Shown piece after piece: positions 7,036 to 42,513 of a DNA stretch of 64,000 nucleotides. A program made the position numbers and the translations under genes. The stretch lies in assembly GCF_029227855.1 (NCBI RefSeq), contig NZ_CP074356.1. One strand, 5' to 3'. Source of the stretch: Escherichia coli (GTDB taxonomy: Bacteria > Pseudomonadota > Gammaproteobacteria > Enterobacterales > Enterobacteriaceae). Position 1 is the first letter of the stretch, and every line of letters begins with the position of its first letter. The notes under the pieces are model-generated. The model was given only the letters and a program-made list of their open reading frames with translations. It did not search any database and had not been told where the DNA came from.

Positions 7036-7125
7036 GGAGAGATGCCGGAGCGGCTGAACGGACCGGTCTCGAAAACCGGAGTAGGGGCAACTCTACCGGG
7101 GGTTCAAATCCCCCTCTCTCCGCCA
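7036..7125 (+). tRNA. serU: tRNA-Ser (anticodon CGA); prophage attachment target
   Basis: GGAGAGATGCCGGAGCGGCTGAACGGACCGGTCTCGAAAACCGG...CCCCCTCTCTCCGCCA, 90 nt with long variable arm; its 3' 62 nt are repeated at 63384..63445. Confidence 0.9.
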
Positions 7126-7177: not shown

Positions 7178-8203
7178 TTACTTGGAATATTTTCTTGGAA
7201 TATTTTCAGGTAACGGGACATCAAGTGTCGGTGAAACTTTAACCTTCCTGTCATAGATTAGCACTTGCCCCTCGGTTTTGTGACCAGAGAAAAGTTGCTT
7301 ATCCCGACTGCTTCCTTCATAGTCTGAAATTCCTTTCGCCTTCAGATCATGAAAGGTGAAGTCGGTTAAAATACCTGAAATTTTGCCTGCGCGATTTCTT
7401 GCTTCTACCCACATTTCGTTAAAGCCTTTGTACATATATCGGTTGCCGTACTGATTGCTGATTACATAGGCGGATGTTGGTAACTGTTTTGCTTTTTCGA
7501 TCGCCGCCTGTAATCGTGGACTCCATGCTTTTATCTGTTTTTTTCCTGTTTTCCCTTGCTGGATAAAGATCCCGTCGTTTCCAATCTGCTCCCATTTCAG
7601 CGATAACACATCGGAAACCCTCGCTGCACACAGATAGGCAATTTCCATTGCGATAAAAACAGGAAGAGGTGCAACGCTTAATACTGCCTGGTATTCTTTG
7701 TCGGTTACATATCGTTCGCGGTTTTTGGCCTTGAATTTACTTACACCTGCACATGGGTTAGCCTTCACGTACCCTCGCTCATACCCCCAACTGTAAACGC
7801 GGGACATACTGCTTTTTTCATGGTTGGCTTGCGTTTTACTCTGTTCCCCTCTCTTGTCCATGTATCGACGGATGTGTTCTGGTTTTATGGAATCTGCCGG
7901 CACCTTACCGAATACGGCAAGCAACTTTTTTTGATGTTGCAGATAATCTTTTTGTGTTCTTGGACTGAGGTCACTGTAATAGGCGCTGGCGAGGAATTTT
8001 TCCCACAAGCGACCGAATGTCATTGCACGATCGCGATTATTTACAGTTTCCTCATACTTTTTCCATAAAGCAGCTAAACCATCCTTGATGGCGGTTAGTG
8101 TTACAGATTCTCTGGATGTTGGTTTCCATACATAACTATATTTATTTGGGTATACATTTGGAGGTAATTTTTCGTGTTCAGGATTTTTCCTTCGTCTTCC
8201 CAT
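7178..8203 (-). CDS. int: Prophage tyrosine integrase
   Basis: 341-aa ORF next to tRNA-Ser with a lambda-family integrase C-terminal region (..AWSPRLQAAIEKAK.., ..HDLKAKGISDYEGS..). Confidence 0.9.
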   Translation of the reverse strand: MGRRRKNPEHEKLPPNVYPNKYSYVWKPTSRESVTLTAIKDGLAALWKKYEETVNNRDRAMTFGRLWEKFLASAYYSDLSPRTQKDYLQHQKKLLAVFGKVPADSIKPEHIRRYMDKRGEQSKTQANHEKSSMSRVYSWGYERGYVKANPCAGVSKFKAKNRERYVTDKEYQAVLSVAPLPVFIAMEIAYLCAARVSDVLSLKWEQIGNDGIFIQQGKTGKKQIKAWSPRLQAAIEKAKQLPTSAYVISNQYGNRYMYKGFNEMWVEARNRAGKISGILTDFTFHDLKAKGISDYEGSSRDKQLFSGHKTEGQVLIYDRKVKVSPTLDVPLPENIPRKYSK

Positions 8204-8464: not shown

Positions 8465-10906
8465 TTAAAAATCAGCCTGACTCGGGATCAGTTTTTGCCA
8501 GATAGCTGAAACGTATTTTGCCTGGTAACGAGCGTCATCAAGTGCATTATGGCGCTCACCTTCGAATGGAATAGCCGTTCTGGCATCGAAGTCTATGGCT
8601 TTCCCCAGCTCAACGATTGTGCGTACATCGCGATCGTTGTAGTAACGCCACGGGCAGGGGATCCCCTGCCGTTCGTATGAACGGCGCAAAATCGTGTTGT
8701 CGAAGTTGGCTCCATTTCCCCAGACCTGAACAAAAAATTCACCGGAGTTTTCGTCGATAAATTCCCGCAATTGTAACAGTGCATCATCTAACGGGATTTC
8801 ATCGGTCATAATGGCAGATTGCGCTTCGCGTGATTGCTTAAGCCACCATTTAATGGTGTCCCGATCAATGACTCCGCCAGCAGTTTCCAGATCGATAGTC
8901 TTACTAAATTCCGGTCCCATATCTCCGGTTTGCGGATCGAAAAATATTGCACCTATTGAGATGATCGGGGCATCAGGATTTTTTCCCATGGTTTCAAGGT
9001 CGATCATTAGATGGTCACACGTCCTGCTGGTGGATGTGATTTCGTGATGACCATTCACCGTAATTAAGGGATCTGCCGTCTCGCCAGTTTTACTATCGCT
9101 GGCGTGGTCCTGAGCGCTGCCAGCATTCTCCTTGTGTGGATGTTCAGCGCCTTCCATTTCCTCCGGATCATTTTCCTGAACTTCAACCTGATTCTCTTCA
9201 TCGAATGTTTTCTGGTATGTTGCGTCGCCCATCACCGCGCCACAATCAGGGCAGTTGCCGCCACCGCTCTGACCGCAGGCGGAGCAGACTTTTTCCGGTT
9301 CCTGTTGCGCTACTGGTTCGGATTGTTTCGTTTCTGGCTCGTTTTGTAACGCATTTGGGCTGTTTTGTTCCGCTTTTTGGTCGTTCCGTTCCGATTCATG
9401 CTGGTTCTGGTTCACAGAATCGCGAGTCTGGATCCCCTTGACCCATTTCGGATCATTAGGGTCGCTAATCCCCTCAACAAATTCACCACGCGATACAGCA
9501 AGTAACTTATCGGCGTCAGGCTGGCTGATATTGGCTGCCTGCATAATTTTGTTTACTTCGTCAGCGGTGACTTTTACTTGGTTAGCGGAACTCACCTGCG
9601 ACTGAGCATCCAGCGACTGCGCGTTCTGGCAATGTTCAGTTGTATCCGGTTCCATTGTTTCAGTTGTTGCCTGTTCACCTGCCATTGCGTCAGATGGTTG
9701 TGGTTTTTCTTCTTCTGTTTCACGCTCAGTAACCACCTCGCGGTTAATTTCTTCCAGGATATCTTTTTCCGGCGTATGCCGGGCAGCTGTGAGAGTTTCC
9801 TTGCTGGGGTTCTCGTGATCAGTTTCCGTCAAATAGGCGTTGATATACCCCTGAAGGCGTCCCGGGTAGTGATAAAATTCAGGGTGTGCGCTTCGGATAA
9901 GTGCAAAAATAGCGGCGCGGGAATAGTCCAGAATACCCGGGGTTGCACGAAGTGCTGCGGACCATTCTTTGAACGGACTTTCTTTTTTCAGGACTACTTC
10001 TTTTGCGCGACGATAAACGCTGCCCGGAATTTCATAAATATTAAAATCCATCGGAAGTGTGGCTGCTGCAATCTCCACATCCAGTGTGTCGAGGGTGTGT
10101 ACTAAATTCGGACTGCGATCGGTTTTGTTCCCACCGCCAGCATTAGCACCGGAAGCCGTGCGGGTGATGCGTGAAACACGATTTCCTTTCATCCACTCTT
10201 TTGTCAGCAGACCCCGATCAGTGTAGTCAGCGTCCAGGTATGCTTCGAAAAAAGCAGTTATTAGTCCCAGGTCTGAATTACCAGGATTAGGGAAAACTTT
10301 GTCAGTGTCACGAACCAGTTTGTGGAGGTCGCGAATCTCCAGCGAGTCGAGCAGACTGGTTTTATGCGAAATAGCCAGGGCAGTAACAGCCGGTAGTTCT
10401 TCAGCCCGTGCAATGTGTAATGCCTGGAGTTCGTCGCGTGAAACGTGCGTTACTGGTTTTTCGCTGCCGTGTTGAGCAAGCCAACGAATGGGCAGTTCCT
10501 GACCGGAGACAGGTAGAAGCATGCTCTCCTCAATCTCAGTCATGTCTTCGCCGTTGATGTTGGTATTATCAGTGCTGGCTGATTTGTCCTGAACAGAGGG
10601 GGAAGGGCCGATAAATGTCATTGTGATGCCATCTTTCCCGCCTTTTTCATAGCGGTTGCAGAATTCAGTATCAAACACGCCTTCTGGCGGAAGGTCGTCA
10701 ACAACGGGCAAATTGACGCGGACGGGTTTTTTAAAGTCGTCTTCATCATAATCGTTGTCATCCATTGCGGTAATGCAGCGGGAGATTGCAACAGATAATT
10801 TTTTTGCTGTAGTCCAGTAAAAACCACCTTTAATTCCTAGGCGTTTTCTTACTTTGTCATTTTTTGCTTCGCAATATAGTGCAAATTCTTCTTTATCAGT
10901 GCTCAT
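8465..10906 (-). CDS. Phage exonuclease-domain protein (DEDDh 3'-5' exonuclease C-terminal domain), 813 aa
   Basis: C-terminus has [10 protein letters not shown]...[10 protein letters not shown] and ..[16 protein letters not shown] motifs typical of DnaQ-like exonucleases; large acidic linker region. Confidence 0.7.
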
Positions 10907-10999
10907 TATTGATAAACCTCATCACAGATTTAAGGGTGAACAAATCTCTGCCATTGCTGACATATAAGAATGAAACTGGATATTTATTACGGTGCTGTT

Positions 11000-11191
11000 T
11001 TAAAATCCTGCCGGGATTTCGTTATTATCCTGGTGAATAACTTTATCGACCGGATAACAGTTGCCTGGAATTTTCTGTTCGGTTGCTGCTGCCATACATT
11101 CCTGCATTGTTCTGTGAACACTGACTGCAATATCAACTGGCTCTCCGGAAACAAGAAAAACCGTCAGAATAAGTGCAAATACTGGATTCAT
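11000..11191 (-). CDS. ydfD: YdfD-like small secreted/lysis protein (63 aa)
   Basis: MNPVFALILTVFLVSGEPVD..., directly downstream of dicB as in Qin; start chosen at the internal ATG with hydrophobic N-terminus. Confidence 0.5.
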   Translation of the reverse strand: MNPVFALILTVFLVSGEPVDIAVSVHRTMQECMAAATEQKIPGNCYPVDKVIHQDNNEIPAGF

Positions 11192-11376
11192 TGTGCACAT
11201 CCTTTTGGCATCAGACGTAAACGGGCCAGCATTGAAACAATGCATACTTTATTTAATAACTCCCGTTCGTGTTTTCTTTTGTTAATGGCCTCTTCAGTAA
11301 ATACAGGATTACTGATAGTGACACCAATTTCAAAACAACCTTCAGACGTATTAACGTTTGGTAATAACGTTTTCAT
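11188..11376 (-). CDS. dicB: Cell-division inhibitor DicB (62 aa)
   Basis: MKTLLPNVNTSEGCFEIGVTISNPVFTEEAINKRK...LMPKGCAQ matches recalled Qin DicB; DicF lies just upstream. Confidence 0.7.
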   Translation of the reverse strand: MKTLLPNVNTSEGCFEIGVTISNPVFTEEAINKRKHERELLNKVCIVSMLARLRLMPKGCAQ

Positions 11377-11549
11377 TATCGCGCCCCAACAATGAGTTTT
11401 GTGATGCGGTGCCTGGTGCCTCCAGGTGACGTTAACCAGTTAACAATTAACGCCGGATACAGAGAATCCACCCATAACACTGTTTTTGGTTTTAACTGTT
11501 CCGCGTGCGCTTAGCCGCATTCACCGCATCACAAAATTCACTTTAAAAA

Positions 11550-11602
11550 GGGCGGCAGAGCAGTCACGGAGTAAAACTGATACCGCCAAACGTCACCAGA
11601 AA
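11550..11602 (-). ncRNA. dicF: DicF small regulatory RNA (53 nt) with 3' hairpin and U-tract
   Basis: Minus strand reads TTTCTGGTGACGTTTGGCGGTATCAGTTTTACTCCGTGACTGCTCTGCCGCCC followed by TTTTT; matches recalled DicF. Confidence 0.7.
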
Positions 11603-11943
11603 ATTGATAACAGAGGGCGTTGCAGCGGGGTTGTCACTTAAGCGTATGGTCAACCTGACAACCCGGTGTCCTCAACGGGGGAAGGAATAACCCCGCCATA
11701 CTTACCGCCGCGCCATTTCGCGGATTGCCACAACCGGAAGCGCACGGTCGACGAAAATTTAACGACAGGCTATCTATGAACCAGCTACCTCGCCGTGCGC
11801 TTTCGCGTTATGGTCTGACTTTTCAGGGAAATATCCTTTCAGTAAACTGTCAGTGCCGGATGCTCACCCGTGTCCGGCGCACGCACTCCACCTCACCCGT
11901 GGAGAACTCCTTAATTACTAACCTTAGCTTTGTTGATTAGCTA

Positions 11944-12162
11944 CTAACGCGGGTATGTAATCATTCTGGCAATGCTTAATGCCGCTGCTTTTTCCAGATT
12001 GGTGATATCCTGCTCCAGAGCGGACAGATTTTCAGCCTGCTTAGCCCTGGCTTCATTAGCCCATTTCAGATCCTGCGCTGCATTAATTTTCTGGCGCATC
12101 CACTCATAAAGTTCATCATCGGTATAGTCTGGCGCGATGATGACGGGTTCTCGTTTCTGCAC
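11944..12162 (-). CDS. ydfC: YdfC-like protein (72 aa)
   Basis: ORF MQKREPVIIAPDYTDDELYEWMRQKINAAQDLKW...; position and length as ydfC in the Qin dicB operon. Confidence 0.6.
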   Translation of the reverse strand: MQKREPVIIAPDYTDDELYEWMRQKINAAQDLKWANEARAKQAENLSALEQDITNLEKAAALSIARMITYPR

Positions 12163-12191
12163 GCTGATTCCTCGCGGTGCTGTTTCGCTTA

Positions 12192-12320
12192 TCAGCCGTT
12201 AGATTTTGCCGAACTGGAAAGCGCCTGTTTAAATTCGCTGAAGCTGAGAGCTTCTTCGCCTTCGGCAAGGCCTTCGAAGTATTCTTCGTAAGCCTTTTCC
12301 ATGATTGTGTCGAAATCCAT
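12192..12320 (-). CDS. ydfB: YdfB-like small protein (42 aa)
   Basis: Hand-translated MDFDTIMEKAYEEYFEGLAEGEEALSFSEFKQALSSSAKSNG; below track length cutoff. Confidence 0.5.
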   Translation of the reverse strand: MDFDTIMEKAYEEYFEGLAEGEEALSFSEFKQALSSSAKSNG

Positions 12321-12321
12321 A

Positions 12322-12477
12322 TCACCCACCTGAATTTCTTTCCAGCCAGCGACGCGCTCCAGATTCGGTTTTAAACGTTTTGCTTTTGGTATACGTCATT
12401 GCGGTGAAGGTGCCGTCCTGGTTGGGAAACACGCCGTACACCAGAGATTCGTTGTTGCCAAGATCGATAGTATCCAT
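12322..12477 (-). CDS. ydfA: YdfA-like small protein (51 aa)
   Basis: Internal ATG of track ORF 12322..12558 gives the 51-aa MDTIDLGNNESLVYGVFPNQDGTF... product; first gene of the dicB-type operon. Confidence 0.5.
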   Translation of the reverse strand: MDTIDLGNNESLVYGVFPNQDGTFTAMTYTKSKTFKTESGARRWLERNSGG

Positions 12478-12774
12478 GCTGACCTCATTTCCCCTTAACG
12501 CCGGGGTAGCGGAACAAAAACCTGCTGCATAGTTATTAAAGTTGAACCCTGCCGTCATGTTCTTACGCCTCGGGCTGGCTACTTAACCCCTGACCACTGC
12601 CTGGTAACTCGAAGTATTGCCCTGCATTCTGTGGGGCGGGGTGGGTGGTAGGTATATAATGTACTTTTCGTTCATTGTTGTAAAGTACTTTTAGTACATT
12701 TTGTGTGTAAAAAAATGAGATGGGATAAAGTGAAGCACAAACCCGGAGGAAGGCGCTACCGGATTTATGCTGGT

Positions 12775-13194
12775 TTAAGAGGCTTTTTGTTTTTTCTTTC
12801 GTGCTAACTCTTCGTAAATTGCATTGTACTTCTGTTTTTTCTCTTCAAGAGTTTTTAAAAGTTCATCTGTCTCACTGTCAGGGAGCTCGTCCAGAAGGTC
12901 AATGATGATTTTTTGTCTTGGATTTAACTCCTGATAGAAACGTACCTGTCCACTTTCTTCTGTATCCTCTCCCAAAAGATAGGTTGGTGTTGTTCCTATT
13001 AGTGTTGCTAATTCCCTTAATTTCTCCCGGCGAGGAATTGTTTCGCCATTAAACCATTTGCTAACCGCTTTTGGTGTTAATTTCATTCGACGGGCAATTT
13101 CTGCCTGCCTTCCATGTTGTTCATAACCAGCGTTTTCACAGGCTAGCGCAAGCCTACTGGCGAACTCTTTACGCGCTTTATCTTCATGAACCAT
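12775..13194 (-). CDS. Prophage repressor, HTH XRE family (DicA/RacR-like)
   Basis: 139 aa with N-terminal HTH (..QAEIARRMKLTPKAVSKWFNGETIP..); divergent from a Cro-like gene. Confidence 0.8.
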   Translation of the reverse strand: MVHEDKARKEFASRLALACENAGYEQHGRQAEIARRMKLTPKAVSKWFNGETIPRREKLRELATLIGTTPTYLLGEDTEESGQVRFYQELNPRQKIIIDLLDELPDSETDELLKTLEEKKQKYNAIYEELARKKKQKAS

Positions 13195-13273
13195 AAGTTC
13201 AATGATATTCGCTCTTGAATGTACTGTCAGTTCTGTTATAGCATGTACTCAAAGTTCACATTGTGAGGGTGAT

Positions 13274-13528
13274 ATGAACCAGAAAACACTTGAAGATGTA
13301 ATCAAAACTGTTCGCGTTGCTGTTGTGGCCGACGTTTGTGGTGTCAGCCAAAGAGCAATCTATAAATGGATGGATAACGGAAAATTGCCTCGCACAGAAT
13401 ATACCGGCGAAACAAATTACGCTGAAAAAATCGCTCTTGCATCAAACGGATTATTTTCTGCCGATGCAATTTTAACTATTGGCAGGAATAAAACTACTAC
13501 GAAAAAGCTGATGGGAGTTGATTCATGA
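13274..13528 (+). CDS. Cro/DicC-like small HTH regulator (84 aa)
   Basis: MNQKTLEDVIKTVRVAVVADVCGVSQRAIYKWMDNGKLP..; divergent from the repressor; start set at the ATG at 13274. Confidence 0.6.
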   Translation: MNQKTLEDVIKTVRVAVVADVCGVSQRAIYKWMDNGKLPRTEYTGETNYAEKIALASNGLFSADAILTIGRNKTTTKKLMGVDS

Positions 13529-13950
13529 AAATCAAGCATGAACACATCCGCATGGCGATGAATGCCTGGGCGCATCCGGACGGCGAAAAAGTACCGGCTG
13601 TGAAAATTACCAAAGCGTATTTCGAGCTGGGAATGACGTTCCCGGAACTGTATGACGACAGCCATCCGGAAGCCCTGGCTCGCAATACTCAGAAAATTTT
13701 CCGCTGGGTGGAGAAAGACACCCCTGATGCGGTTAAAAAAATTCAGGCGTTGTTACCAGCTATCGAAAAAGCAATGCCACCTCTGCTGGTGGCCCGAATG
13801 CGCAGTCATAGCTCAGCCTATTTTCGGGAACTAGTGGAGACGCGGGAACGACTGGTGAGAGACGCTGATGATTTTGTCGCAGTGGCGATCGCTGGTTTCA
13901 ACCAGATGAATCGTGGTGGCCCTGCAGGAAATATTGTGGCTGTGCATTGA
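13525..13950 (+). CDS. YdaT-like (CII-like) regulator, 141 aa
   Basis: Position after cro-like gene and before the replication gene, start overlapping the upstream stop; family assignment recalled from Rac ydaS-ydaT-ydaU organisation. Confidence 0.65.
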   Translation: MKIKHEHIRMAMNAWAHPDGEKVPAVKITKAYFELGMTFPELYDDSHPEALARNTQKIFRWVEKDTPDAVKKIQALLPAIEKAMPPLLVARMRSHSSAYFRELVETRERLVRDADDFVAVAIAGFNQMNRGGPAGNIVAVH

Positions 13951-17144: not shown

Positions 17145-17401
17145 ATACAGCGAACTCCATTGGTTTAGTTGGATATTTATTGTGCTGGACAAAAACGGTT
17201 TGCGGGGAAATCTTAGTTAAGTAGAATGACTGCGGGTGCTTGAGGCTATCTGCCTCGGGCATGAACACCAACGGCAGATAGAGAAAAGCCCCAGGTAACA
17301 TTACGCGTCCTGCAAGACGTTTAACATTAATCTGAGGCCATATCTATGCGACACATAGAGATTAGCCTCTTACGGACCGAAAGGTCAAGGAGAAGCAGGC
17401 T

Positions 17402-17557
17402 ATGAAGCAGCAAAAGGCGATGTTAATCGCCCTGATCGTCATCTGTTTAACCGTCATAGTGACGGCACTGGTAACGAGGAAAGACCTCTGCGAGGTACGA
17501 ATCCGAACCGGCCAGACGGAGGTCGCTGTCTTCACAGTTTACGAACCTGAGGAGTAA
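17402..17557 (+). CDS. hokD: Hok/Gef-family type I toxin (51 aa), HokD/RelF-like
   Basis: MKQQKAMLIALIVICLTVIVTALVTRKDLCEVRIRTGQTEVAVFTVYEPEE; single TM helix plus conserved Cys pattern. Confidence 0.75.
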   Translation: MKQQKAMLIALIVICLTVIVTALVTRKDLCEVRIRTGQTEVAVFTVYEPEE

Positions 17558-20692: not shown

Positions 20693-20769
20693 CGGTCCTT
20701 TAGCTCAGTGGTGAGAGCGAGCGACTCATAATCGCCAGGTCGCTGGTTCAAATCCAGCAAGGGCCACCA
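20693..20769 (+). tRNA. Phage-borne tRNA with CAU anticodon (Met or lysidine-Ile2 type)
   Basis: GGTCCTTTAGCTCAGTGGTGAGAGCGAGCGACTCATAATCGCC...GGGCCACCA; cloverleaf folds. Confidence 0.85.
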
Positions 20770-20874
20770 TCACAAACCGCCATTAGCTTATCAGGAAGAG
20801 CAGACGACACGATAACAGGGGTGTTGGTGCGGGGGGGGGGCGGGTCCCCGATGGCGGTCCATTATCGGTATTCA

Positions 20875-20951
20875 GCGTTGTTAGCTCAGCCGGACAGAGC
20901 AATTGCCTTCTAAGCAATCGGTCACTGGTTCGAATCCAGTACAGCGCGCCA
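20875..20951 (+). tRNA. Phage-borne tRNA-Arg (anticodon UCU)
   Basis: GCGTTGTTAGCTCAGCCGGACAGAGCAATTGCCTTCTAAGCAATCGGTCACTGGTTCGAATCCAGTACAGCGCGCCA. Confidence 0.85.
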
Positions 20952-21415: not shown

Positions 21416-21862
21416 ATACATATCTGGATTATCACCTGTTACGGTAAAAAGTGATTGCTTACTGTTTTTGTGAATGGCATTGCAGCAGCCGGATAATGTC
21501 AGTGCTGGCTGACGGTGTGCTGGTGGCGGGTGTGGTGGTTGTTGCTTTCCCGTTGCTGAAAAAGAAAACGCCAGACTGTTAGCCGGGTATCAGTTAGCGG
21601 GAGAAATTTTTAAATACTTCACAATTCAGGCGGTTGACTGTTGTCTGGTTTGCGGGGAGTTTGTTAAAAGAAACTGGCATGGTGAATCCCCCTGTGCGGA
21701 GGGGCAATCAGCGAGTAGGTATATGGGATAATCGCGGATTCAGGTGCTGGTACTGAATTCACCGGGAGGCACCCGGCACCATGCAATGGCACATAGCGCC
21801 ACTCTCCAGCCCCTCTCCGGAGGGGCTGTTTATATTGATTTTGTCAGATGTGAGTAAACTCC

Positions 21863-32499: not shown

Positions 32500-32775
32500 A
32501 TGTCGATGTACACAACCGCCCAGCTGCTGGCGGCAAATGAGCAGAAATTTAAGTTTGATCCGCTGTTTCTGCGTCTCTTTTTCCGTGAGAGCTATCCCTT
32601 CACCACGGAGAAAGTCTATCTCTCACAAATTCCGGGGCTGGTAAACATGGCGCTGTACGTTTCGCCGATTGTTTCCGGTGAGGTTATCCGCTCCCGTGGC
32701 GGCTCCACCTCTGAATTTACGCCGGGATATGTCAAGCCGAAGCACTTAGCATGGCTTTCTGAGGCTTTCGTGTAG
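32500..32775 (+). pseudogene. E: Major capsid protein E, 5' fragment (codons 1-82) disrupted by insertion
   Basis: MSMYTTAQLLAANEQKFKFDPLFLRLFFRESYPF...EFTPGYVKPKH matches lambda gpE, then reads into foreign sequence (LAWLSEAFV, stop at 32775). Confidence 0.85.
32735..32744 (+). repeat. Left copy of 10-bp direct repeat AGCCGAAGCA (putative att core of the inserted element)
   Basis: Identical 10-mer at 43864..43873 exactly where E homology resumes. Confidence 0.6.
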
Positions 32776-32907
32776 CTGCTGGTTTTTACACTTAATCTTT
32801 TGATAATAAAGAATAAGTTTATCTGGCGCTTTCACTGAATTTTCCTCGTTATCTGTGTGTTGCAATCATCTCTGTATTGCAGCTTGTATTGCTTTTTGGG
32901 GCTAAAA

Positions 32908-34143
32908 ATGGCTGGCGAGAACAAACTGAGCGACAAAGCGCTTAAAGGATATCTGGGGAAACCCAGAGAAAAGCAGATCACCATTGCTGATGGAAAGGGG
33001 CTTTCTATTCGTGTGAGTACTAAAGGGGCTGTGAGCTTTGTTTTCTTCTACAGGTTAGCAGGTGGCCGGGCTGCTCCGGTCTGGCTAACGTTGGGTAAAT
33101 ATCCTGATATGTCACTCAAACAGGCAAGGGAAAAGCGCGACGAGTGCCGTGGTTGGTTGGCTGACAAACGTGATCCGCGTATCCAGATTAAGATTCAGGC
33201 TGAAGAACGCTTAAAGCCGGTCACAGTGGAGGATGCACTAAATTACTGGTATGAAAATTACTGTAAGGTGCGTCGTAAAACTCATGCTGTAACGCTTGGC
33301 AGATTTCGAAAGCATATCTTTCCCTATATCGGTCATTTGCCCGTAAATGACACTCACCTATATGAATAGCTGGACTGTTTTGACCGAATTAAACGTAATG
33401 CACCAGTTATGGCGGCGTATGTTTTTTCTGACACTAAATTAGCTCTTCGTTTTTGTCGGGTACGCCAGTACGCGACGTGTGATGCTTTAAAGGATTTGCG
33501 CATGAGTGATGTGGGGCAGATTGCAGGTAAGCGGGATCGGGTTCTGGATGAGGTCGAACTCGGCCAGCTCTGGAAGGCAATTTTTGTCGAGCCTGATTTA
33601 AAACTAATGTCTGAATACACGCGAAAAATGTTTGTGCTTTGTACAGTATTTGGATGTCGAATGAGTGAAGCCCGATTATCAGAATGGAGCGAATGGGATC
33701 TCGAAAGTTGGGTTTGGACTGTGCCAAAAGATCACTCAAAAACTGGTGTTGAAATCGTCAGACCAGTACCTGAAATTCTACGACAGTGGGTAACGGATGT
33801 TCACGAAGAGACAAAACATACTGGTTATGTGCTGGGAAGTCTGCGAATTAGAGAAAGCGTAAGCAAGATTGGGGGGAAAATCGGTAAACGTTTGGGCCAT
33901 GAAAAACAATGGTCACTACACGACCTTAGAAGAACGCTATCTACTCATCTAAGTGATCTCGGTGTTGAATTTTATGTAGTAGAACAACTGTTAGGCCATG
34001 CGCTACCTGGCGTGGCAGGTGTTTACAACCGGAGTAAGTTTATGGCTAAAAAACTGGATGCTCTGGAACTCTGGACTACATATCTCAATAGCATCGCAGC
34101 TGCTGATTCAAAAGTGACAATCCTCAAACAAAAGGCTGGTTAG
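32908..34143 (+). pseudogene. int: P4-type tyrosine integrase interrupted by an in-frame amber codon (TAG at 33367..33369)
   Basis: Track ORFs 32857..33369 and 33409..34143 are in the same frame; P4-int-like N-terminus (..KGLSIRVSTKGAVSFVFFYR..GKYPDMSLKQAREKRDE..); TAG sits where homologues have Trp. Confidence 0.8.
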
Positions 34144-34144
34144 C

Positions 34145-34375
34145 ATGAAAAAAATGGCAATTGTTGATAAAAAGGGTCTGGAGTACATTCCTAACATTGA
34201 CCGAATGATCCGTGAGAAAGAATGTCGGGAGCTAACTACTCTTGCGAACAGCACACGCTGGAAGCTGGAGAAGGAAGGAAAATTTCCTAAGCGGATCAAG
34301 ATTGGTTCCACTGCTGTTGCATATCGTCTTTCAGAAGTGCAGGCATGGATTCGAGGTGAGTGGGAAACAACTTAA
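34145..34375 (+). CDS. alpA: AlpA-family transcriptional regulator / excisionase-like protein
   Basis: 76 aa, HTH (..CRELTTLANSTRWKLEKEGKFPKRIKIGSTAVAYRLSEVQAWI..) directly after int. Confidence 0.75.
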   Translation: MKKMAIVDKKGLEYIPNIDRMIREKECRELTTLANSTRWKLEKEGKFPKRIKIGSTAVAYRLSEVQAWIRGEWETT

Positions 34376-34382
34376 CTATTAG

Positions 34383-35213
34383 GTGGGCATTGTGGCTATA
34401 TTTCATTATACAGATCTTTTTGGTTTGAAAGGTATATTAGACTCTAATTCTTTATGGGCTACAAACATATATTTCTTAAATGATAAAGAGGAGTCTAACC
34501 ATGGATGTGAATGCTTTCGAAATACAATTAAAATAGTTGATGACAATATCATTCCAAAAGATAAGAAAACTATTTTGCTCAAGTCTCTTGACATGTATGA
34601 GAAAGGGAGGTTACAAAAAGAAAAAGGGATTGATAAACATGTTTATAGCATCTCTTTTTGTAAGGAAAACGATAAGTTAAGTCAGTGGAGAGGTTACGGA
34701 AATAAACAGGGTGTTTGCATTGAGTTTGATGCGGATGAACTTGTGAGCTTTTCTCAAAATATTTATTTAAATTGTGTTGCACATGATGTTATATATTCAA
34801 ATAATAACGATATTACTAAGATGAGTAAGGAGTTGGGAGAGTTTTTTTCTTGTAATGGTATTAATATTAAAGAAATGAATGATCATTTTGTAACAATGGT
34901 CTCTACGTATCAATTTATATCTAAATACATCCCATTTTTTAAACATCCTAGTTTTATCGAAGAGAATGAATTTAGATTGGTATTTACTCCGTGGATGCAA
35001 ATGCCAGATGTGCACTTCAGAATAAATAATAATGGGATCATCCCTTATATCATCATTGATAATAAAGATAATAGAAAGTTACCAATTAAAAGCATTACAA
35101 TTGGCCCGACAAACGATTATGATTTCATTGAGGCTGGTATAAAAATGTTCTTGGATTCAAGAGGATTTAGTTCTGTGGAAATTAAATCCTCATCAATTCC
35201 ATTCAGGGGGTAA
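34383..35213 (+). CDS. DUF2971-like protein (276 aa), AT-rich cargo gene
   Basis: N-terminal IFHYTDLFGLKGILDSNSLWATNIYFLNDKEE resembles the DUF2971 signature; very low GC; start could be GTG 34383 or GTG 34391. Confidence 0.6.
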   Translation: MGIVAIFHYTDLFGLKGILDSNSLWATNIYFLNDKEESNHGCECFRNTIKIVDDNIIPKDKKTILLKSLDMYEKGRLQKEKGIDKHVYSISFCKENDKLSQWRGYGNKQGVCIEFDADELVSFSQNIYLNCVAHDVIYSNNNDITKMSKELGEFFSCNGINIKEMNDHFVTMVSTYQFISKYIPFFKHPSFIEENEFRLVFTPWMQMPDVHFRINNNGIIPYIIIDNKDNRKLPIKSITIGPTNDYDFIEAGIKMFLDSRGFSSVEIKSSSIPFRG

Positions 35214-35258
35214 GGATTAACACTTTTAATCTATGATATTATAAAAATGGTGGATAAA

Positions 35259-35278
35259 GGCGACCAGAATTGGTCGCC
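35259..35278. terminator. Bidirectional hairpin between convergent cargo genes
   Basis: AGGCGACCAGAATTGGTCGCC perfect inverted repeat. Confidence 0.4.
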
Positions 35279-35344
35279 AATGTGAGTATATAGTTAGCCT
35301 TAATCAGAATACGAGGTTATCGCCTGATAGGCAATGTGAACAGT

Positions 35345-35701
35345 TCAATATTTAGGTGGTTCAACAAGAGCGTTTATCATTGCTCTCAAATTATCGCGAA
35401 CACTTATCCAAGTCTGTTCTGCTCGTTCTAACTCATCAGTGTACAACTTTAATGTTTTATCTATGCCATATGTGGCTATTAAATTTATAGCTTCTTGTAA
35501 TTTTTCAGGATTATTCCTTCTTGGGGGAGTGAATATACCACGGATTTTTCCGGTAATTAAAGCTTTACGGTGTCTACATAGAATACCTTTACTTCCTGCT
35601 GGACAATTACAAGTCATGATTAGCGAGCCAGAATCGTTTGATACAGTGACTATGTATACATCCAAACTACTGCTACTTGTTGCGAAGAATTCGTATTTCA
35701 T
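35345..35701 (-). CDS. Small SWIM-type zinc-finger protein (118 aa)
   Basis: CNCPAGSKGILCRH (CxC..CxH) motif; AT-rich. Confidence 0.55.
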   Translation of the reverse strand: MKYEFFATSSSSLDVYIVTVSNDSGSLIMTCNCPAGSKGILCRHRKALITGKIRGIFTPPRRNNPEKLQEAINLIATYGIDKTLKLYTDELERAEQTWISVRDNLRAMINALVEPPKY

Positions 35702-35728
35702 GTGTTAGCTCCTTGACTTCAATTATTC

Positions 35729-35860
35729 TTATCCTTTTGGTTCAATACCGCGCCGTAGCAGCTCTTTGCGCCCTAATTCTTTAAGCCAGTTGGCTAGGCT
35801 TATGCCGTCGCTCTGCGCTTCTTTGTCGAATTGCTCTTTTAGCTCTGGAGAAATTCGCAT
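35729..35860 (-). CDS. Small ribbon-helix-helix-like protein (43 aa; longer in-frame form to 36043 possible)
   Basis: MRISPELKEQFDKEAQSDGISLANWLKELGRKELLRRGIEPKG; immediately upstream of the SWIM gene on the same strand. Confidence 0.45.
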   Translation of the reverse strand: MRISPELKEQFDKEAQSDGISLANWLKELGRKELLRRGIEPKG

Positions 35861-36059
35861 TCTGAATTGTGGAGATTGCCCATCACCCTTAGGACTTTTA
35901 TCGCGTTTGATCGTTGACAAGTGACCACCTATTGAATTAGCCTTTTCATTGTTAGGTGACCACCTTAACACGGGGGCACTTAAAAAAGCAAAGCCCGAAG
36001 GTGCTGGGAACACCAACGGGCTTCTAACCACCAACGATAGCAACAGTATCGAGGTAGCT

Positions 36060-36263
36060 ATGAGAAATCATACCACACACCCGCAAGGGCGGGACCCGCA
36101 CAACCTGAATAAATACATCTGGCGTTTTATCGCCTTGAGTACGGCACAACCGCGCATGATTACCATCGAGGCCATCAGCGAACAGGAAGCCCGCCAGCAA
36201 TCCCCAACTGGCTGCGTGATGGTATTCGCCGCCCGTATTCGTCAGGAGGTGTGCCGTGCTTAA
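36060..36263 (+). CDS. Small hypothetical satellite protein (67 aa)
   Basis: ATG with GAGG RBS; first of five tightly coupled small genes preceding the primase. Confidence 0.4.
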   Translation: MRNHTTHPQGRDPHNLNKYIWRFIALSTAQPRMITIEAISEQEARQQSPTGCVMVFAARIRQEVCRA

Positions 36264-36441
36264 AACCTTCCGTGTATTTGCCCGAGCTGTTAACCCACTG
36301 GGCCACACAATTGGTATCACTCAGAACGTGAAGGCTGTTAATGTTCAGACGGCTATTGCTGCGGTGAGAAGCGAATCATCAGAATATGGCTTATCACAAG
36401 TCATTATTTCAGCAGTGTATGAATTAAAAGAGGTGCATTAA
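36256..36441 (+). CDS. Small hypothetical satellite protein (61 aa)
   Basis: Track ORF, overlaps neighbours by a few nt. Confidence 0.4.
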   Translation: MLKTFRVFARAVNPLGHTIGITQNVKAVNVQTAIAAVRSESSEYGLSQVIISAVYELKEVH

Positions 36442-36632
36442 TGCAGGAAATCACATTACACGAAGCCGCTGAACGTGCGCACCAGACAGAAATTATTTGC
36501 CGCCTTCTTGAGGTATACCCGAACAAAATTACAGATGCTGATATATCCGCGCTGGCGAGCCTACTGGCGCGCCTTTCGGGAAGTGTCGCTAGTTTCCTGA
36601 TTGAGGAAGAAAGTAAGCTGGTGGGGGATTAA
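36441..36632 (+). CDS. Small hypothetical satellite protein (63 aa)
   Basis: Track ORF, start overlaps upstream stop. Confidence 0.4.
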   Translation: MQEITLHEAAERAHQTEIICRLLEVYPNKITDADISALASLLARLSGSVASFLIEEESKLVGD

Positions 36633-36854
36633 ATGAATACAGAACGGGAAGTCTTTTTTAAATTGTTAGCATGTGCAGAAAGTTCATTAACTTTAAATAA
36701 TTCAGCAAAAGCAATATTAAATATGTGGCTTGATTGCATAAATGACAATGAAGATGCAAATATTGCTTATGGCCTGTTGTCACTTATTGATGAATCAGCA
36801 GAAAAACTCAATGACGCAATAAATAGTGCCCTGCTATCAAATAAGTCGAGTTAA
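36633..36854 (+). CDS. Small hypothetical satellite protein (73 aa)
   Basis: Track ORF. Confidence 0.4.
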   Translation: MNTEREVFFKLLACAESSLTLNNSAKAILNMWLDCINDNEDANIAYGLLSLIDESAEKLNDAINSALLSNKSS

Positions 36855-36871
36855 GTCGAGGAATAAATAAT

Positions 36872-37171
36872 ATGGAAATGAAAAATTCTGGCTTTATTGC
36901 CAGCGGCCCCGCTCGGCCTGAATTTATGAACGGCGATATTTACCGCGATAAATACGGCGGCACGGTAACGATTAAAGGCGTGGCAGAACGGCGCATCACT
37001 TACCGCCGTGAGGGGTATAGCTATGACTGCGTGATGCCTGTTTATCAGTTCCGGCGTGATTTTTCCCTGGTATATGCCGCACCCCGCAGTAAGCCCATCA
37101 GCAGGGAAAAAGCGCGGGGAAACATCCAGAAAATGAAAAGCATGATTAACGCATTCAGGGGCAAAAAATGA
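36872..37171 (+). CDS. Small hypothetical satellite protein (99 aa)
   Basis: Track ORF, stop overlaps primase start. Confidence 0.45.
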   Translation: MEMKNSGFIASGPARPEFMNGDIYRDKYGGTVTIKGVAERRITYRREGYSYDCVMPVYQFRRDFSLVYAAPRSKPISREKARGNIQKMKSMINAFRGKK

Positions 37172-38919
37172 AACTGGCACCGAACTTAAAAAAACAGCCA
37201 CGCGACAGACTGACAGAGGTAATCATCTTTGCAGGTAGTGATGCGTGGAGCCATGCGAAAGAGTGGCGGGAATGGGCGGGTAAACATATTGCCGCCGACG
37301 ATGTGCCGCCTGTCGTGCTGGCTGATGAGCAACTGAAAAATATCACCGATTACCGGATCATTGATGAAGATCGTCAGTGTGTGCGTGTTTACCGCGCAGG
37401 ACATATCACAGAGCACAGCATGACGCAGATTGTTACGTTACTGGCTGTGGCTGGAGTGAAGACCGTACACGAATACGCGGGGATTACTGACACCAGCCCA
37501 GTGGATTTATCCGAGCAGTTGCCGCGACTCAAAGAGGAATGCGAGCGTGGGGAAAGTCTGGTGCTTAATCTTCCGACGAAGCAAAAGGCGCAACTTTCAC
37601 AGATGGCAGACAGTGAACGTGCACAACTACTTGCCGATCGCTTTGATGGTGTGTGTGTTCATGCAGAAAGTGAAATCGTCCACGTATGGCGCGGCGGGGT
37701 ATGGTGTCCGGTCAGCACAATGGAGCTGAGCCGCGAAATGGTGGCGATCTATTCAGAGCACAGGGCCACGTTCAGCAAACGTGTAATCAATAACGCCGTG
37801 GAAGCGTTAAAAGTTATTGCCGACCCCATGGGGGAGCCGTCCGGTGATTTGCTACCGTTCACTAATGGTGTGCTTAACCTGAAAACGGGGGAATTTTCTC
37901 CGCACTCGCCGGAGCACTGGAGCACCACGCACAATGGCATTGAGTACACGCCACCAGTAGCAGGGGAAAACATCCGCGATAATGCGCCAAATTTCCATAA
38001 ATGGCTTGAACATGCTGCAAGAAAAGACCCGCGCAAGATGATGCGTATATGTGCCGCGTTATACATGATTATGGCGAACCGCTACGACTGGCAGATGTTC
38101 ATTGAGGCCACCGGAGACGGGGGAAGCGGTAAGAGTACATTTACCCATATTGCCACCCTGCTTGCTGGCAAACAGAACACCGTAAGCGCGGAGATGACAT
38201 CACTCGATGATGCAGGAGGGCGCGCGCAGGTTGTCGGGAGTCGTCTTATCGTCCTTGCCGATCAGCCGAAATATACGGGGGAAGGCACGGGCATCAAGAA
38301 AATCACGGGAGGCGATCCCGTTGAAATTAACCCGAAATATGAGAAGCGATTCACGACGATAATAAGGGCGGTGGTACTGGCAACCAATAACGACCCGATG
38401 ATCTTTACCGAACGGGCCGGAGGTGTGTCACGCCGTCGGGTGATTTTCCGGTTCGACAACATTGTAAGGGAGGACGAAAAAGACAAGGAATTACCGGAAA
38501 AGATAGCGGCAGAAATCCCCGTAATTATCCGCCGCTTGCTGGCTAATTTTGCTGACCCTGAAAAGGCACGGGCTTTATTACTGGAACAGCGTGACGGTGA
38601 TGAAGCTCTGGCAATAAAGCAGCAAACGGATCCGGTTGTTGAGCTTTGCGCGGCGCTGGAGTTTCTGGAGGAAGCTCGTGGGCTAATGATGGGCGGTGGT
38701 GGTGACACCGTGAAGTACACGACCAGAAACAGCCTTTACCGTGTCTATATGGCCTTCATGGCATACACAGGAAAGGGGAAATGTTTGAGCGTGAATGAGT
38801 TCGGAAAGGCTATGAGGTCAGCGGCGAAAGTTTACGGATATGAATATATTACGCGAAAAGTTAAGGGAGTCACGCAGACCAACGCAACGACTACTGATGA
38901 TTGCGATGCGTTTTTATAA
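37168..38919 (+). CDS. Primase/replicase (P4 alpha / D5-type), 583 aa
   Basis: Walker A GDGGSGKST in the C-terminal half; large N-terminal domain; followed by iterons. Confidence 0.8.
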   Translation: MKLAPNLKKQPRDRLTEVIIFAGSDAWSHAKEWREWAGKHIAADDVPPVVLADEQLKNITDYRIIDEDRQCVRVYRAGHITEHSMTQIVTLLAVAGVKTVHEYAGITDTSPVDLSEQLPRLKEECERGESLVLNLPTKQKAQLSQMADSERAQLLADRFDGVCVHAESEIVHVWRGGVWCPVSTMELSREMVAIYSEHRATFSKRVINNAVEALKVIADPMGEPSGDLLPFTNGVLNLKTGEFSPHSPEHWSTTHNGIEYTPPVAGENIRDNAPNFHKWLEHAARKDPRKMMRICAALYMIMANRYDWQMFIEATGDGGSGKSTFTHIATLLAGKQNTVSAEMTSLDDAGGRAQVVGSRLIVLADQPKYTGEGTGIKKITGGDPVEINPKYEKRFTTIIRAVVLATNNDPMIFTERAGGVSRRRVIFRFDNIVREDEKDKELPEKIAAEIPVIIRRLLANFADPEKARALLLEQRDGDEALAIKQQTDPVVELCAALEFLEEARGLMMGGGGDTVKYTTRNSLYRVYMAFMAYTGKGKCLSVNEFGKAMRSAAKVYGYEYITRKVKGVTQTNATTTDDCDAFL

Positions 38920-38935
38920 AAAATGGCAATGGTTA

Positions 38936-39170
38936 TCTACCTTGTCTACCTGACTGAAAGAAAATACTTTTATTTCAATGTATTAATGCAGGTAGATAAC
39001 TATTTTTCACTGTCTACCTGTTATCTACCTTATCTACCCATTTTTGTAGACAGGTAAGGAGACGGGTAGAGATGAGGTAGACAGCTATTTGGGGCTGTCT
39101 ACCTCCCTGAAACCCGCGCCATTACTGGCCTGATAACTAATCAGGTAGACAAGGTAGACAAGGTGGTGGT
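38936..39170. repeat. Iteron array (putative satellite replication origin)
   Basis: About 12 copies of (A/G)TCTACC / GGTAGA(C/T) in both orientations within ~235 bp. Confidence 0.7.
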
Positions 39171-39208
39171 GCACAAAAAACTTTTTAAACGAGGGGGTAA
39201 AAATAAAA

Positions 39209-39466
39209 ATGCACACTTCAGGAAAACTGAACAAACATATAAAGCCACATTACCGCGCCCTTGATATGGCTGAACACTGGCTAAGGGTGGCGATTAAGGC
39301 AATAGACCGCAACGCCGGGGAAGGATACGCGAAAGCACATCCCGAACTGATAAGCGCATTCATGACAACGGCGGCTGCAAACTTTGCCACGCTGACCGAA
39401 CGGGAGATTGCTGAAGCGGAGGAAGTGACAACAATCAATATTAAGTCCGGAGAGCAGGCAGCATGA
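39209..39466 (+). CDS. Hypothetical satellite protein (85 aa)
   Basis: Track ORF, translationally coupled to the SSB gene. Confidence 0.45.
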   Translation: MHTSGKLNKHIKPHYRALDMAEHWLRVAIKAIDRNAGEGYAKAHPELISAFMTTAAANFATLTEREIAEAEEVTTINIKSGEQAA

Positions 39467-39912
39467 CGGCGCAAATATCAGTTTACGGGCGGTTGGTGGA
39501 CGACCCGCAGACAAAACAGACCAGCAAGGGCACCCCCATGACGCTGGCGCGTATGGCGGTATCACTGCCCTGCAGTCAGTCGGATGACGGTCTGGCGACG
39601 TTGTGGTTATCTGTCCTGGCGTTTGGCAGACAAGCCGACGCGCTGGCAAAGCATCACAAAGGCGAACTCCTGAGCGTGGCGGGTAACATGCAGATGAGCC
39701 AGTGGACTGGACAGAACGGCGAAACGCGGCAGGGCTGGCAGGTTATCGCAGACAGCGTAATCAGTGCGCGATCGGTGCGACCGGGCGGCAAAAAAGGCCA
39801 ACAGGGGCAGGCTACTGACGCACTGAACAGAGCAAAACAACAGGCAGATCAGCAAGGAAGCCAGCCACCAGAGGGAGATAATGAGCAATGGGGAGATGAT
39901 ATCCCGTTTTAA
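39463..39912 (+). CDS. ssb: Single-stranded DNA-binding protein
   Basis: OB-fold-like N-terminus, Gly/Gln-rich linker and acidic C-terminal tail ending DDIPF. Confidence 0.8.
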   Translation: MTAQISVYGRLVDDPQTKQTSKGTPMTLARMAVSLPCSQSDDGLATLWLSVLAFGRQADALAKHHKGELLSVAGNMQMSQWTGQNGETRQGWQVIADSVISARSVRPGGKKGQQGQATDALNRAKQQADQQGSQPPEGDNEQWGDDIPF

Positions 39913-40128
39913 ATATTGCCAATAAAAAAAGCCGGAAAAAATAAATTTTCCGGCATGCTACATAAATCCCGACCAAAGGGAGTGAAGATATTAACACTAA
40001 TTGTCCGCACTGAAGTTGTCACACCAAAACTTTATACAACATTGCACTCGGTTGCATGTGTTCGCATGACAAATATCGGTGATAGCATATATCCACAATT
40101 ATTTTTAATGAATGCAAAGAGGATGCGT

Positions 40129-41169
40129 ATGGTTGATTTATATTCGCCTACTCAGCTTGTACAGGTAGTTAATGCTGTAGATGTACAAAAACAACTAAAT
40201 GCGTTGTTTACCAGTTTGTTTTTTACTCGCTCGGTAATGTTTGAATCGCGCGATATTATTCTTGATACAATCGACGATCCAAATATCCCAATTGCAGCGT
40301 TTTGTTCTCCTATGGTGGGTAGTAAAGTTTCACGTGACGAAGGGTACGAATCAAAAACAATTCGTCCAGGCTATATGAAGCCGAAAAGCAGCATTGATCC
40401 AAATAAGTTAGCTGTGCGCCCTGCTGGTGTGTCACCTGAGCAATACAATGCTTTTGGGGCGCGTAATATTAAAGTTAAACAGGCGATTGTAAATCAGGCT
40501 AAAGCTATTCGTGCACGTATTGAATGGCTTGCTGTTCAGGCAATCACAACGGGGAAAAATATCATTGAGGGCGATGGTATTGAACGTTATGAGCTGGACT
40601 GGAATATAAAACCACAAAATATCATCACTCAGTCTGGCGGTACTGAGTGGTCAGGTAAGGATAAAGAAACTTTTGATCCAAATGATGATATTGAGAGCTA
40701 CGCAGAATTTAGTGAGGGCGTCACTAATATCATCATTATGGGTGGTAATGTATGGAAGAAATACCGTTCATTCAGAGCGATAAAAGAGGCTTTGGATACC
40801 CGTCGTGGTTCTAATTCCGAACTGGAAACGGCCCTTAAAGACCTTGGTGATTCGGTGAGTTTTAAAGGGTATATGGGCGATGTTGCGATTGTTGTTTACA
40901 GCGGGCGTTATACCGACGAGGACGGAACAGAAAAACATTTCCTTGATCCTGATTTGATGGTGCTTGGCAATACGGCTCTTCAGGGGATTGTCGCCTATGG
41001 CGGTATTCAGGATCCGGAGCTAATCCGAATGGGGCTGACTAAAGCCGAACTTGCACCGAAAAACTATATTGTGCCTGGTGATCCGGCTATTGAATATGTG
41101 CAGACACATTCAGCACCACAGCCAATACCGGCCCGCATCAATCGTTTTGTTACCGTTCGCATTGGCTAA
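40129..41169 (+). CDS. Satellite-encoded major capsid protein, lambda gpE family (346 aa)
   Basis: Collinear similarity to gpE (ITQSGGTEWSGKDKETFDPNDDIESYA..., ..LDTRRGSNSELETALKDLG..GDVAIVVYSGRY..MVLGNT..); start set at MVDLYSPTQ with AGGA RBS. Confidence 0.8.
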   Translation: MVDLYSPTQLVQVVNAVDVQKQLNALFTSLFFTRSVMFESRDIILDTIDDPNIPIAAFCSPMVGSKVSRDEGYESKTIRPGYMKPKSSIDPNKLAVRPAGVSPEQYNAFGARNIKVKQAIVNQAKAIRARIEWLAVQAITTGKNIIEGDGIERYELDWNIKPQNIITQSGGTEWSGKDKETFDPNDDIESYAEFSEGVTNIIIMGGNVWKKYRSFRAIKEALDTRRGSNSELETALKDLGDSVSFKGYMGDVAIVVYSGRYTDEDGTEKHFLDPDLMVLGNTALQGIVAYGGIQDPELIRMGLTKAELAPKNYIVPGDPAIEYVQTHSAPQPIPARINRFVTVRIG

Positions 41170-41178
41170 GGGGGAGCA

Positions 41179-41520
41179 ATGGCTACTCATTACACTGAAC
41201 TCATGGCTGGCACTGAAGCACTGGTGACTACGCTGGGGATATTTTCAGCTAATAAAGGGGTAATTCCTGCATTTACGCCACTGATGCAGGAAGATGCAAC
41301 AGGTGCACTGGTGGTATGGGATGGTTCGAGCGTAGGTAAAGCGGTTTATGTTTCCGCTGTACAAATCGACACCGCGAAAAAAACACAGGCTCAGGTCTAT
41401 AAGACAGGTGTCTTAAATGTTGATGCTCTGAACTGGCCTGAGTCTGTTAAAGAACTGTCAGTAAAGGTTGCAGCGTTTGTTGGCTCAGGTATTTCTGTTC
41501 AGCCGCTGGCTCGTGTGTAA
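41179..41520 (+). CDS. Satellite-encoded head decoration protein, lambda gpD-like (113 aa)
   Basis: Shares THY, TPLM, LVVWDG, YKTG, WPE, AF.G..IS motifs with gpD at matching positions. Confidence 0.7.
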   Translation: MATHYTELMAGTEALVTTLGIFSANKGVIPAFTPLMQEDATGALVVWDGSSVGKAVYVSAVQIDTAKKTQAQVYKTGVLNVDALNWPESVKELSVKVAAFVGSGISVQPLARV

Positions 41521-41531
41521 AGGGGGATACA

Positions 41532-41915: not shown

Positions 41916-41939
41916 TGAAATTAGGACCCGCTCTGGCTG

Positions 41940-42481: not shown

Positions 42482-42504
42482 AAGCCTGATTAAATTTCAG
42501 GCTT
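42482..42504 (-). terminator. Hairpin terminator after the TIR gene
   Basis: AAGCCTGA-TTAAATT-TCAGGCTT just 3' of the stop. Confidence 0.4.
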
Positions 42505-42513
42505 ATTGAAATG

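Follow-up and report, generated by a model that had tools for sequence, protein, structure and literature searches.

An intact dicBF operon in a lambdoid prophage at serU of Escherichia coli, preceded by a predicted HK022-type switch

Is a dicBF operon that lies outside the Qin prophage the same module as in Escherichia coli K-12 and, if so, how did it come to its present place and what controls it? These questions are raised by a prophage in a stretch of 64,000 nucleotides of the E. coli contig NZ_CP074356.1 (assembly GCF_029227855.1), referred to here as the window. Positions 11000-12477 on the minus strand hold an intact copy of the operon, of the type first described in K-12 Qin, with the genes in the order ydfA-ydfB-ydfC-dicF-dicB-ydfD and each of the six at the coordinates given in Table 1. 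The product lengths equal those of K-12 Qin (51, 42, 72, 62 and 63 aa, plus a 53-nt RNA), and the overlap of 4 nt between ydfD and dicB is likewise found in K-12. All five reading frames are intact, and amino acid differences from K-12 number two in YdfA, none in YdfB, one in YdfC, three in DicB and seven in YdfD. The difference in YdfC lies in the start codon (GTG here, ATG in K-12) and is the sole ydfC difference from K-12.

The initial annotation had called the module Qin-like from its gene order, product lengths and DicF sequence, and had pointed to a nucleotide alignment, in which low identity would speak against this reading, as the check. All three features match K-12 Qin. In a blastn comparison with Qin of K-12 MG1655, window positions 10915-12515 correspond to K-12 1648470-1650070 at 96.6% identity over 1602 bp with two gap openings, a match that far exceeds chance. 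An ungapped comparison gives 83%, which is an artefact of two compensating 1-nt indels. DicF matches K-12 dicF at 53 of 53 bases (100%) and scores 76.7 bits against Rfam RF00039 (gathering score 48), and DicB scores 132.1 bits against Pfam PF05358 (cut-off 27) and 130.7 bits against NCBIfam NF049927 (cut-off 100). The spacer between dicF and dicB also contains, at bases 11398-11538, a sub-threshold STnc100-like match (38.8 bits against a gathering score of 47; E 1.9e-6).

Table 1. Features of the dicBF operon, its control region and the surrounding prophage, in window coordinates
Feature	Position	Strand	Description
serU, tRNA-Ser(CGA)	7036-7125		adjoins mtfA and asnT as in K-12
attL core	7064-7125	+	3' 62 nt of serU
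Integrase gene	7178-8203	-	integrase family domains
Exonuclease	8465-10906	-	813 aa; Exonuc_VIII N-terminal region and Rv2179c-like 3'-5' exonuclease
3' flank homologous to Qin	10915-10999	-	91.7% identity
ydfD	11000-11191	-	63 aa, DUF1482 (Pfam 87.9 bits, above cut-off); 91.7% nt identity to K-12, 56/63 aa
dicB, cell-division inhibitor	11188-11376	-	62 aa; 95.8% nt identity to K-12, 59/62 aa
dicF-dicB spacer	11377-11549	-	173 nt; 96.6% identical to K-12
dicF small RNA	11550-11602	-	53 nt; ends in intrinsic terminator hairpin and U-run
ydfC-dicF spacer	11603-11943	-	341 nt, structured, untranslated; 98.5% identical to K-12
Conserved RNA element	11627-11723	-	97 nt, inside the ydfC-dicF spacer and inside the 190-nt DicF form
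ydfC	11944-12162	-	72 aa; 99.5% nt identity to K-12, 71/72 aa
ydfB	12192-12320	-	42 aa; 98.4% nt identity to K-12; protein equal to K-12 YdfB, 42/42
ydfA	12322-12477	-	51 aa, DUF1391 (Pfam 99.4 bits, above cut-off); 94.9% nt identity to K-12, 2 aa differences
Predicted operon 5' leader	12478-12649	-	about 172 nt; only last 38 nt (12478-12515) common to K-12 Qin
PL-type promoter (predicted)	12656-12697 including operators	-	-35 TTTACA 12684-12679, 17-nt spacing, -10 CATTAT 12661-12656; from promoter scan; directed into ydfA
OL operators (predicted)	12661-12673 and 12685-12697		motif GTACTnnnMGTWC, 24 bp apart, overlapping the PL-type promoter
CI-type repressor	12775-13194	-	139 aa; HK022 CI-like N-terminal HTH, short DicA-like C-terminus
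OR-type control region (predicted)	13202-13257		operators 13221-13233 and 13245-13257, also 24 bp apart
Repressor-gene promoter-like site	13230 to 13202	leftward	CTGACA-17-TATCAT
Cro-like regulator	13274-13528	+	divergent; 60% identity over 73 aa to HK022 Cro
attR	63384-63445		exact 62-bp repeat of the attL core

The prophage that carries the operon is lambda-like, 56.3 kb long and inserted in serU, where it is bounded by the 62-bp att repeat. Its location at serU and its lambda-like structural genes had both been proposed in the initial annotation, and both hold: yeeJ, asnT, mtfA and serU are present in the window in K-12 order, the repeat is exact, and the corresponding site in K-12 is uninterrupted. 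The structural genes comprise a Nu1/A-type terminase, portal, S49 protease, D, E, V, H and J. Domains were found for the late genes Phage_cap_E, lambda tail tube (V), the tape measure H (TMP_2 and Tape_meas_lam_C) and J, and the terminase, portal, S49 protease and D are taken from the annotation of a 99.6%-identical genome. The capsid gene E is split by an 11-kb satellite of the known helper-embedded type, whose integrase has an internal stop codon, so that a defective prophage is probable. The genome of one close relative has frameshifts in the genes for both the prophage integrase and the exonuclease.

The homology to Qin ends sharply on both sides of the dicBF block. On the 3' side it stops 9 nt short of the start codon of the 813-aa exonuclease gene, which is the next same-strand gene after ydfD and holds the position of ydfE in Qin without DNA-level homology to it. 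Neither this gene nor the immunity region has a DNA-level match to Qin by blastn. Other Qin-like parts of the window, namely the homologues of ydfU, essQ/ydfR, rrrQ and ydfO-nohA, are 82-87% identical (blastn), and a hokD piece of 257 bp is 98.4% identical. The module exchange suggested in the initial annotation is thus supported, as ordinary lambdoid mosaicism, because an island of 96.6% identity with sharp ends lies between non-homologous flanks and the other Qin-like pieces are at 82-87%. Within the island the identity is uneven, with 98.4-100% in the centre from ydfB to dicF and 92-96% at the edges (ydfA, dicB and ydfD). We also considered a Rem-type antirepressor between the hokD and ydfU homologues, the place that corresponds to its position in Qin, and rejected it because by eye the reading frame found there shows no relation to Rem.

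The operon appears to depart from K-12 in its control. The dicA/dicC control is absent here, and DNA homology to Qin stops 38 nt before ydfA. Upstream lie genes for a CI-type repressor, a divergent Cro-like regulator and a YdaT-family protein. The repressor shares 46% identity over 102 aa with HK022 CI, in the N-terminal, DNA-binding domain, compared to 29% over 112 aa with DicA, and its score against the NCBIfam DicA model (56.8 bits) is below the cut-off of 101; the Cro-like protein has no similarity to DicC. The motif GTACTnnnMGTWC is matched perfectly at exactly four sites in the whole 64 kb, and each of them falls in one of the two intergenic regions on either side of the repressor gene. 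In addition, about 55 nt at the putative PL/OL are homologous to PL/OL of HK022, a region that has been used experimentally as a promoter (PMC9378689), and the -35 and -10 hexamers and the operator half-sites align. From these similarities, we infer that repression of this dicBF copy comes from an HK022-type switch of its own and not from DicA. A Qin copy in the same cell would hence be under separate control. For the 139-aa repressor, Pfam gives HTH_3 only and no S24 peptidase domain, and SOS-dependent self-cleavage is thus unlikely.

Judged by homology, the transcription start would lie near position 12649. In many other E. coli genomes, the homology of ydfA and its leader extends to about 12650, i.e., the putative start site, which places a recombination joint at the predicted start of transcription. 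The leader does not align with putL, so that no put antiterminator RNA was recognized after the putative PL. In a scan of the comparison loci, the motif AGACG-N7-CGTCT, taken from the HK022 sequence with the residue numbers in PMC9378689, occurs only in HK022.

Taken together, it is highly probable that the operon is PL-type early-left cargo of a lambdoid prophage at serU, silenced by the prophage's own repressor, with expression and action like those in K-12. In the lysogen, the 139-aa repressor would hold the operon off by binding to a pair of GTACTnnnAGTAC-type operators, which overlap the promoter at 12656-12684; this silencing is proposed because of the homology to HK022 PL/OL and the positions of the motif. 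Upon loss of the repressor, a single transcript would run through ydfA, ydfB, ydfC, dicF, dicB and ydfD, as established for the near-identical K-12 operon. In K-12, one promoter lies upstream of ydfA, RNase III generates a 190-nt form of DicF that RNase E converts to 53 nt, and the longer transcripts are ydfABC-dicF and ydfABC-dicFB-ydfD (PMC10448788). By the same route, RNase III would cut a long stem in the ydfC-dicF spacer to give the 190-nt form, RNase E would trim this to a 53-nt DicF that ends at its own terminator, and read-through of that terminator would lead into dicB and ydfD.

A long stem is indeed predicted at about 11728-11813 in this spacer, and the published RNase III cut would map to about 11739. 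The 567-nt stretch of both spacers and dicF (11377-11943) has a fold z-score of -4.1 against shuffled controls. The predicted stem and the strong structure fit the published roles of RNase III and RNase E in processing.

The actions of the products are carried over from the K-12 proteins, which are 89-95% identical to those here. DicF, which represses ftsZ, xylR and pykA among other targets (PMC5069750), would pair with the ftsZ, xylR, pykA and manX mRNAs, as published for K-12. DicB would bring MinC to the division ring, so that division is blocked, and would also inhibit ManYZ, in keeping with the two activities given for it in the available text of PMC6832061. YdfD, a lysis protein with the target IspG according to the accessible part of PMC8835842, would block IspG and cause lysis.

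A segment of about 100 nt in the ydfC-dicF spacer also matches plasmids, which are P1-type phage-plasmids. The P1 GenBank record already annotates the matching site as a "dicF-like region". The 97-nt element defined by these matches is 77-82% identical between the operon and P1/P7, with predicted helices common to both. In P1, unlike here, it follows the C1-controlled ban promoter directly and is succeeded by tRNA genes, in P7 it likewise comes straight after an early promoter under repressor control, and in the P1-like plasmid pIso00270 the sequence downstream is not homologous to the DicF body, although a hairpin and a T-run are visible by eye. Phage Ayreon and Actinobacillus phage pPE4 also carry the element, in both cases in the early-left region and downstream of the gene for the repressor. 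The element has two stems, an invariant TAAGTAT-like loop and three pairs with compensatory changes. A covariance model of the element recovers its own sequences (93.9-115.5 bits) and the K-12 copy that was left out of building (112.5 bits), and no family in Rfam matches the element.

It is quite unlikely, in our judgement, that the element is itself a functional RNA, for example, one that promotes read-through in cis of the terminator that follows it (here that of DicF, before dicB). If it were, only the function would be new; the sequence similarity is already annotated in P1. Homology of the element to the put-type antiterminator of HK022 was rejected, as there is no sequence similarity and the covariance model finds nothing in HK022, although the two may still act in a similar way. 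For the 341-nt spacer as a whole, Rfam gives no match at E values up to 10, and short reading frames there are without support. A hidden feature was also considered for this spacer and set aside, since its conservation is well enough explained by RNase III/RNase E processing and the P1 "dicF-like region".

A comparison across genomes indicates that the module is very widespread. Among 5426 complete E. coli genomes, 4764 (88%) have at least some match to the 1.7-kb module, with a median of two places per genome and a maximum of ten, and 2693 have it covered to at least 80%. The dicC-dicA-ydfA junction of K-12 is covered to at least 80% in 848 of the 5426 genomes. A query from the Cro-like gene through the repressor gene to ydfA (window 12322-13530) is covered to at least 80% in 1040, some of them without ydfA. 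The cassette is not specific to Qin, because the K-12 junction occurs in 848 of the 5426 genomes and the module in 4764; given this spread beyond the K-12 junction, "Qin-like" is a naming accident. Genomes with a copy at least 99.8% identical to the one described here hold one to five dicBF places, and in a number of these the serU prophage is present as well, at 99.6%. The second cell-division-inhibitor system that the initial annotation proposed for a host with Qin would thus vary with the host.

In phage records, 60 match the module, and in six the 1.7-kb query is covered to at least 80%, with 96-99% identity; phages with the module include vB_EcoS-689R5, Tritos and mEp460_ev081. It was remarked in 2016 that no sequenced phage carried DicB or DicF (PMC5069750), and the six records with nearly the whole module update that remark. 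The same paper described dicBF in several prophage contexts, with multiple copies in O157:H7 (CP-933M/O/P), and a later paper cites four DicF orthologues in O157:H7.

The state of the prophage might suggest an inert relic, a module that is never expressed or has lost its activity, and the capsid gene interrupted by a satellite with a stop codon in its integrase, together with the frameshifts in one close relative, would fit a prophage in decay. However, the five small reading frames are intact, DicF is identical to the active K-12 RNA, the promoter and operators are preserved relative to HK022, and 88% of E. coli genomes retain the module. Moreover, the operon of K-12 Qin shows expression and activity in a prophage that is itself defective (PMC10448788, PMC5069750), and we regard an inert relic as very improbable. 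The identity to Qin could also be the product of recent recombination or gene conversion between co-resident prophages rather than of a module that travels with a phage type. The uneven identity between centre and edges could reflect patchy conversion, and many genomes have two to ten copies able to recombine. This explanation is improbable in view of three observations: the junction of the module with this leader or with this immunity region is widespread (the 1040 genomes above), the module is also found in deposited phage records such as the three named above, and strain YZLc1-3 has a near-identical serU prophage and only one dicBF copy in its genome.

A reading that concerns selection, and that we consider somewhat unlikely, is that the module has been selected mainly for protecting the lysogen from other phages and for metabolic rewiring (DicB with ManYZ; DicF with manX, xylR and pykA), not for division arrest. 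Such a role has been published for the K-12 copy (PMC5069750 and, in its available text, PMC6832061), and most E. coli genomes retain the module, in prophages that are defective. The same products also inhibit division, however, so that the roles are not exclusive, and the sequence does not separate them. In addition, the early-left position is that of lambda kil, which fits a role in lytic growth as far as the accessible part of PMC3961180 describes it.

Overall, the early-left cargo reading leaves us with a copy that is real but ordinary, a routine and already known example of a module that is well described and very widespread. All that it adds is a switch that, judged by its similarities, is HK022-like instead of DicA/DicC. 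The copy is a further example of dicBF as an early-left cassette that lambdoid phages exchange freely, and which is no peculiarity of Qin. Within one cell, copies of DicF and DicB can be governed by different immunity switches, here probably one of HK022 type, and studies of DicF/DicB dosage in wild strains therefore cannot assume DicA control. Beyond correct annotation, the importance of the locus is slight.

With respect to known systems, the operon resembles dicBF of K-12 Qin even in its spacers, the lengths of which are equal within 1 nt. The two prophages differ in their surroundings, since the downstream gene in Qin is a ydfE pseudogene cut by IS2 and that found here is an intact exonuclease gene, and the present prophage lies in serU with a full set of late genes. 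Compared to the copies in CP-933M/O/P and in phages, where this module stands in prophage backgrounds other than Qin, often with several copies to a genome, there is no difference in kind; the prophage described here simply combines an immunity region, an integration site and late genes in a further way. The putative switch is like the HK022 immunity region in its OL/PL sequences, its Cro and the DNA-binding domain of its repressor. By contrast, its repressor is 139 aa long, with a DicA-like tail in place of the self-cleaving S24 domain of CI, and the region has neither putL after the promoter nor a nun gene.

Finally, lambda Kil is a small division inhibitor encoded in a lambdoid early-left operon and made on derepression. 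DicB is likewise a small division inhibitor of the early-left region, although its sequence is unrelated to that of Kil and it acts via MinC, and the dicBF operon adds an RNA inhibitor of ftsZ translation.

Among phage genomes that matched a 1.7-kb query covering the dicBF module (ydfA-ydfB-ydfC-dicF-dicB-ydfD), dicF sequence was also found apart from the rest of the module. In the Shigella phages 75/02 Stx and POCJ13, which represent some of the Stx phages, the match is limited to the region of dicF and the sequence flanking it (window about 11391-11649), at about 79% identity, and neither ydfABC nor dicB is included. They are thus dicF-only relatives. In the 254-kb record of Aeromonas phage AP1 (MT713136, 249906-250152), a 246-nt stretch is 98% identical to dicF and the adjoining dicF-dicB spacer of E. 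coli. It sits within a few kb of the record's end, amid hypothetical genes and tRNAs, and looks like contamination or misassembly rather than a real host jump.

The dicF-dicB spacer itself shows a weak match to the STnc100 RNA family (11398-11538; 38.8 bits, E 1.9e-6), below the gathering score, and a full STnc100 match is present elsewhere in the same prophage (see table). Since both stretches match this family, they may be related structured RNAs. A similar piece also adjoins tRNA genes on an 89.6-kb plasmid. Of the two phage tRNA genes in the prophage, one has a CAT anticodon and is assigned to Met by ARAGORN but to Ile by RefSeq, and the other is a tRNA-Arg(TCT).

In the comparison with Qin, the cryptic prophage of K-12 MG1655, a 257-bp hokD piece that is 98.4% identical forms a second high-identity island in addition to dicBF. 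The diguanylate cyclase gene is situated just inside attR and is therefore prophage cargo, not a host gene. The window has intact genes for an 813-aa exonuclease (8465-10906) and a 341-aa integrase (7178-8203). In the serU prophage of strain YZLc1-3, which is 99.6% identical, the annotation gives a frameshift in each of the two.

Features located in the serU prophage and its embedded satellite
Feature	Window position	Strand	Remarks
sok antitoxin RNA and hokD-like toxin gene	17234-17557		sok by Rfam, 100.8 bits
Two phage tRNA genes	20694-20951		3' of Q gene
STnc100 RNA, full match	21648-21837		132 bits; downstream of Q antiterminator gene and phage tRNA genes
Capsid E, N-terminal fragment	end near 32745		
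TIR_2 + DUF3298 protein	42514-43656	(-)	variable cargo slot, satellite 3' end
Capsid E, C-terminal fragment	start near 43875		
MASE4-GGDEF diguanylate cyclase gene	61460-62791	(-)	

The prophage's major capsid gene E is interrupted by an 11-kb satellite (about 32746-43874), which encodes an integrase, a primase of the D5 type and SSB, together with E and D homologues of its own and an HTH gene. For the TIR_2 + DUF3298 protein in its cargo slot, PADLOC gives weak hits to defence proteins that contain TIR; this version of the cargo was found in 15 complete genomes, and other satellite copies carry a different gene in the slot. A candidate gene for an "Icd-like host cell division inhibitor" was placed at about 36061-36264 by position only, following how a satellite copy with 99% identity is annotated. 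If present, it would be one more division-inhibitor candidate within the same prophage as dicBF. The satellite integrase contains an internal stop codon in the window, although an intact 411-aa copy from elsewhere shares 99.3% identity with it; therefore, the satellite is probably locked in, leaving the prophage capsid gene broken. The satellite corresponds to "11capE", a published type of helper-embedded PICI (PMC10111431).
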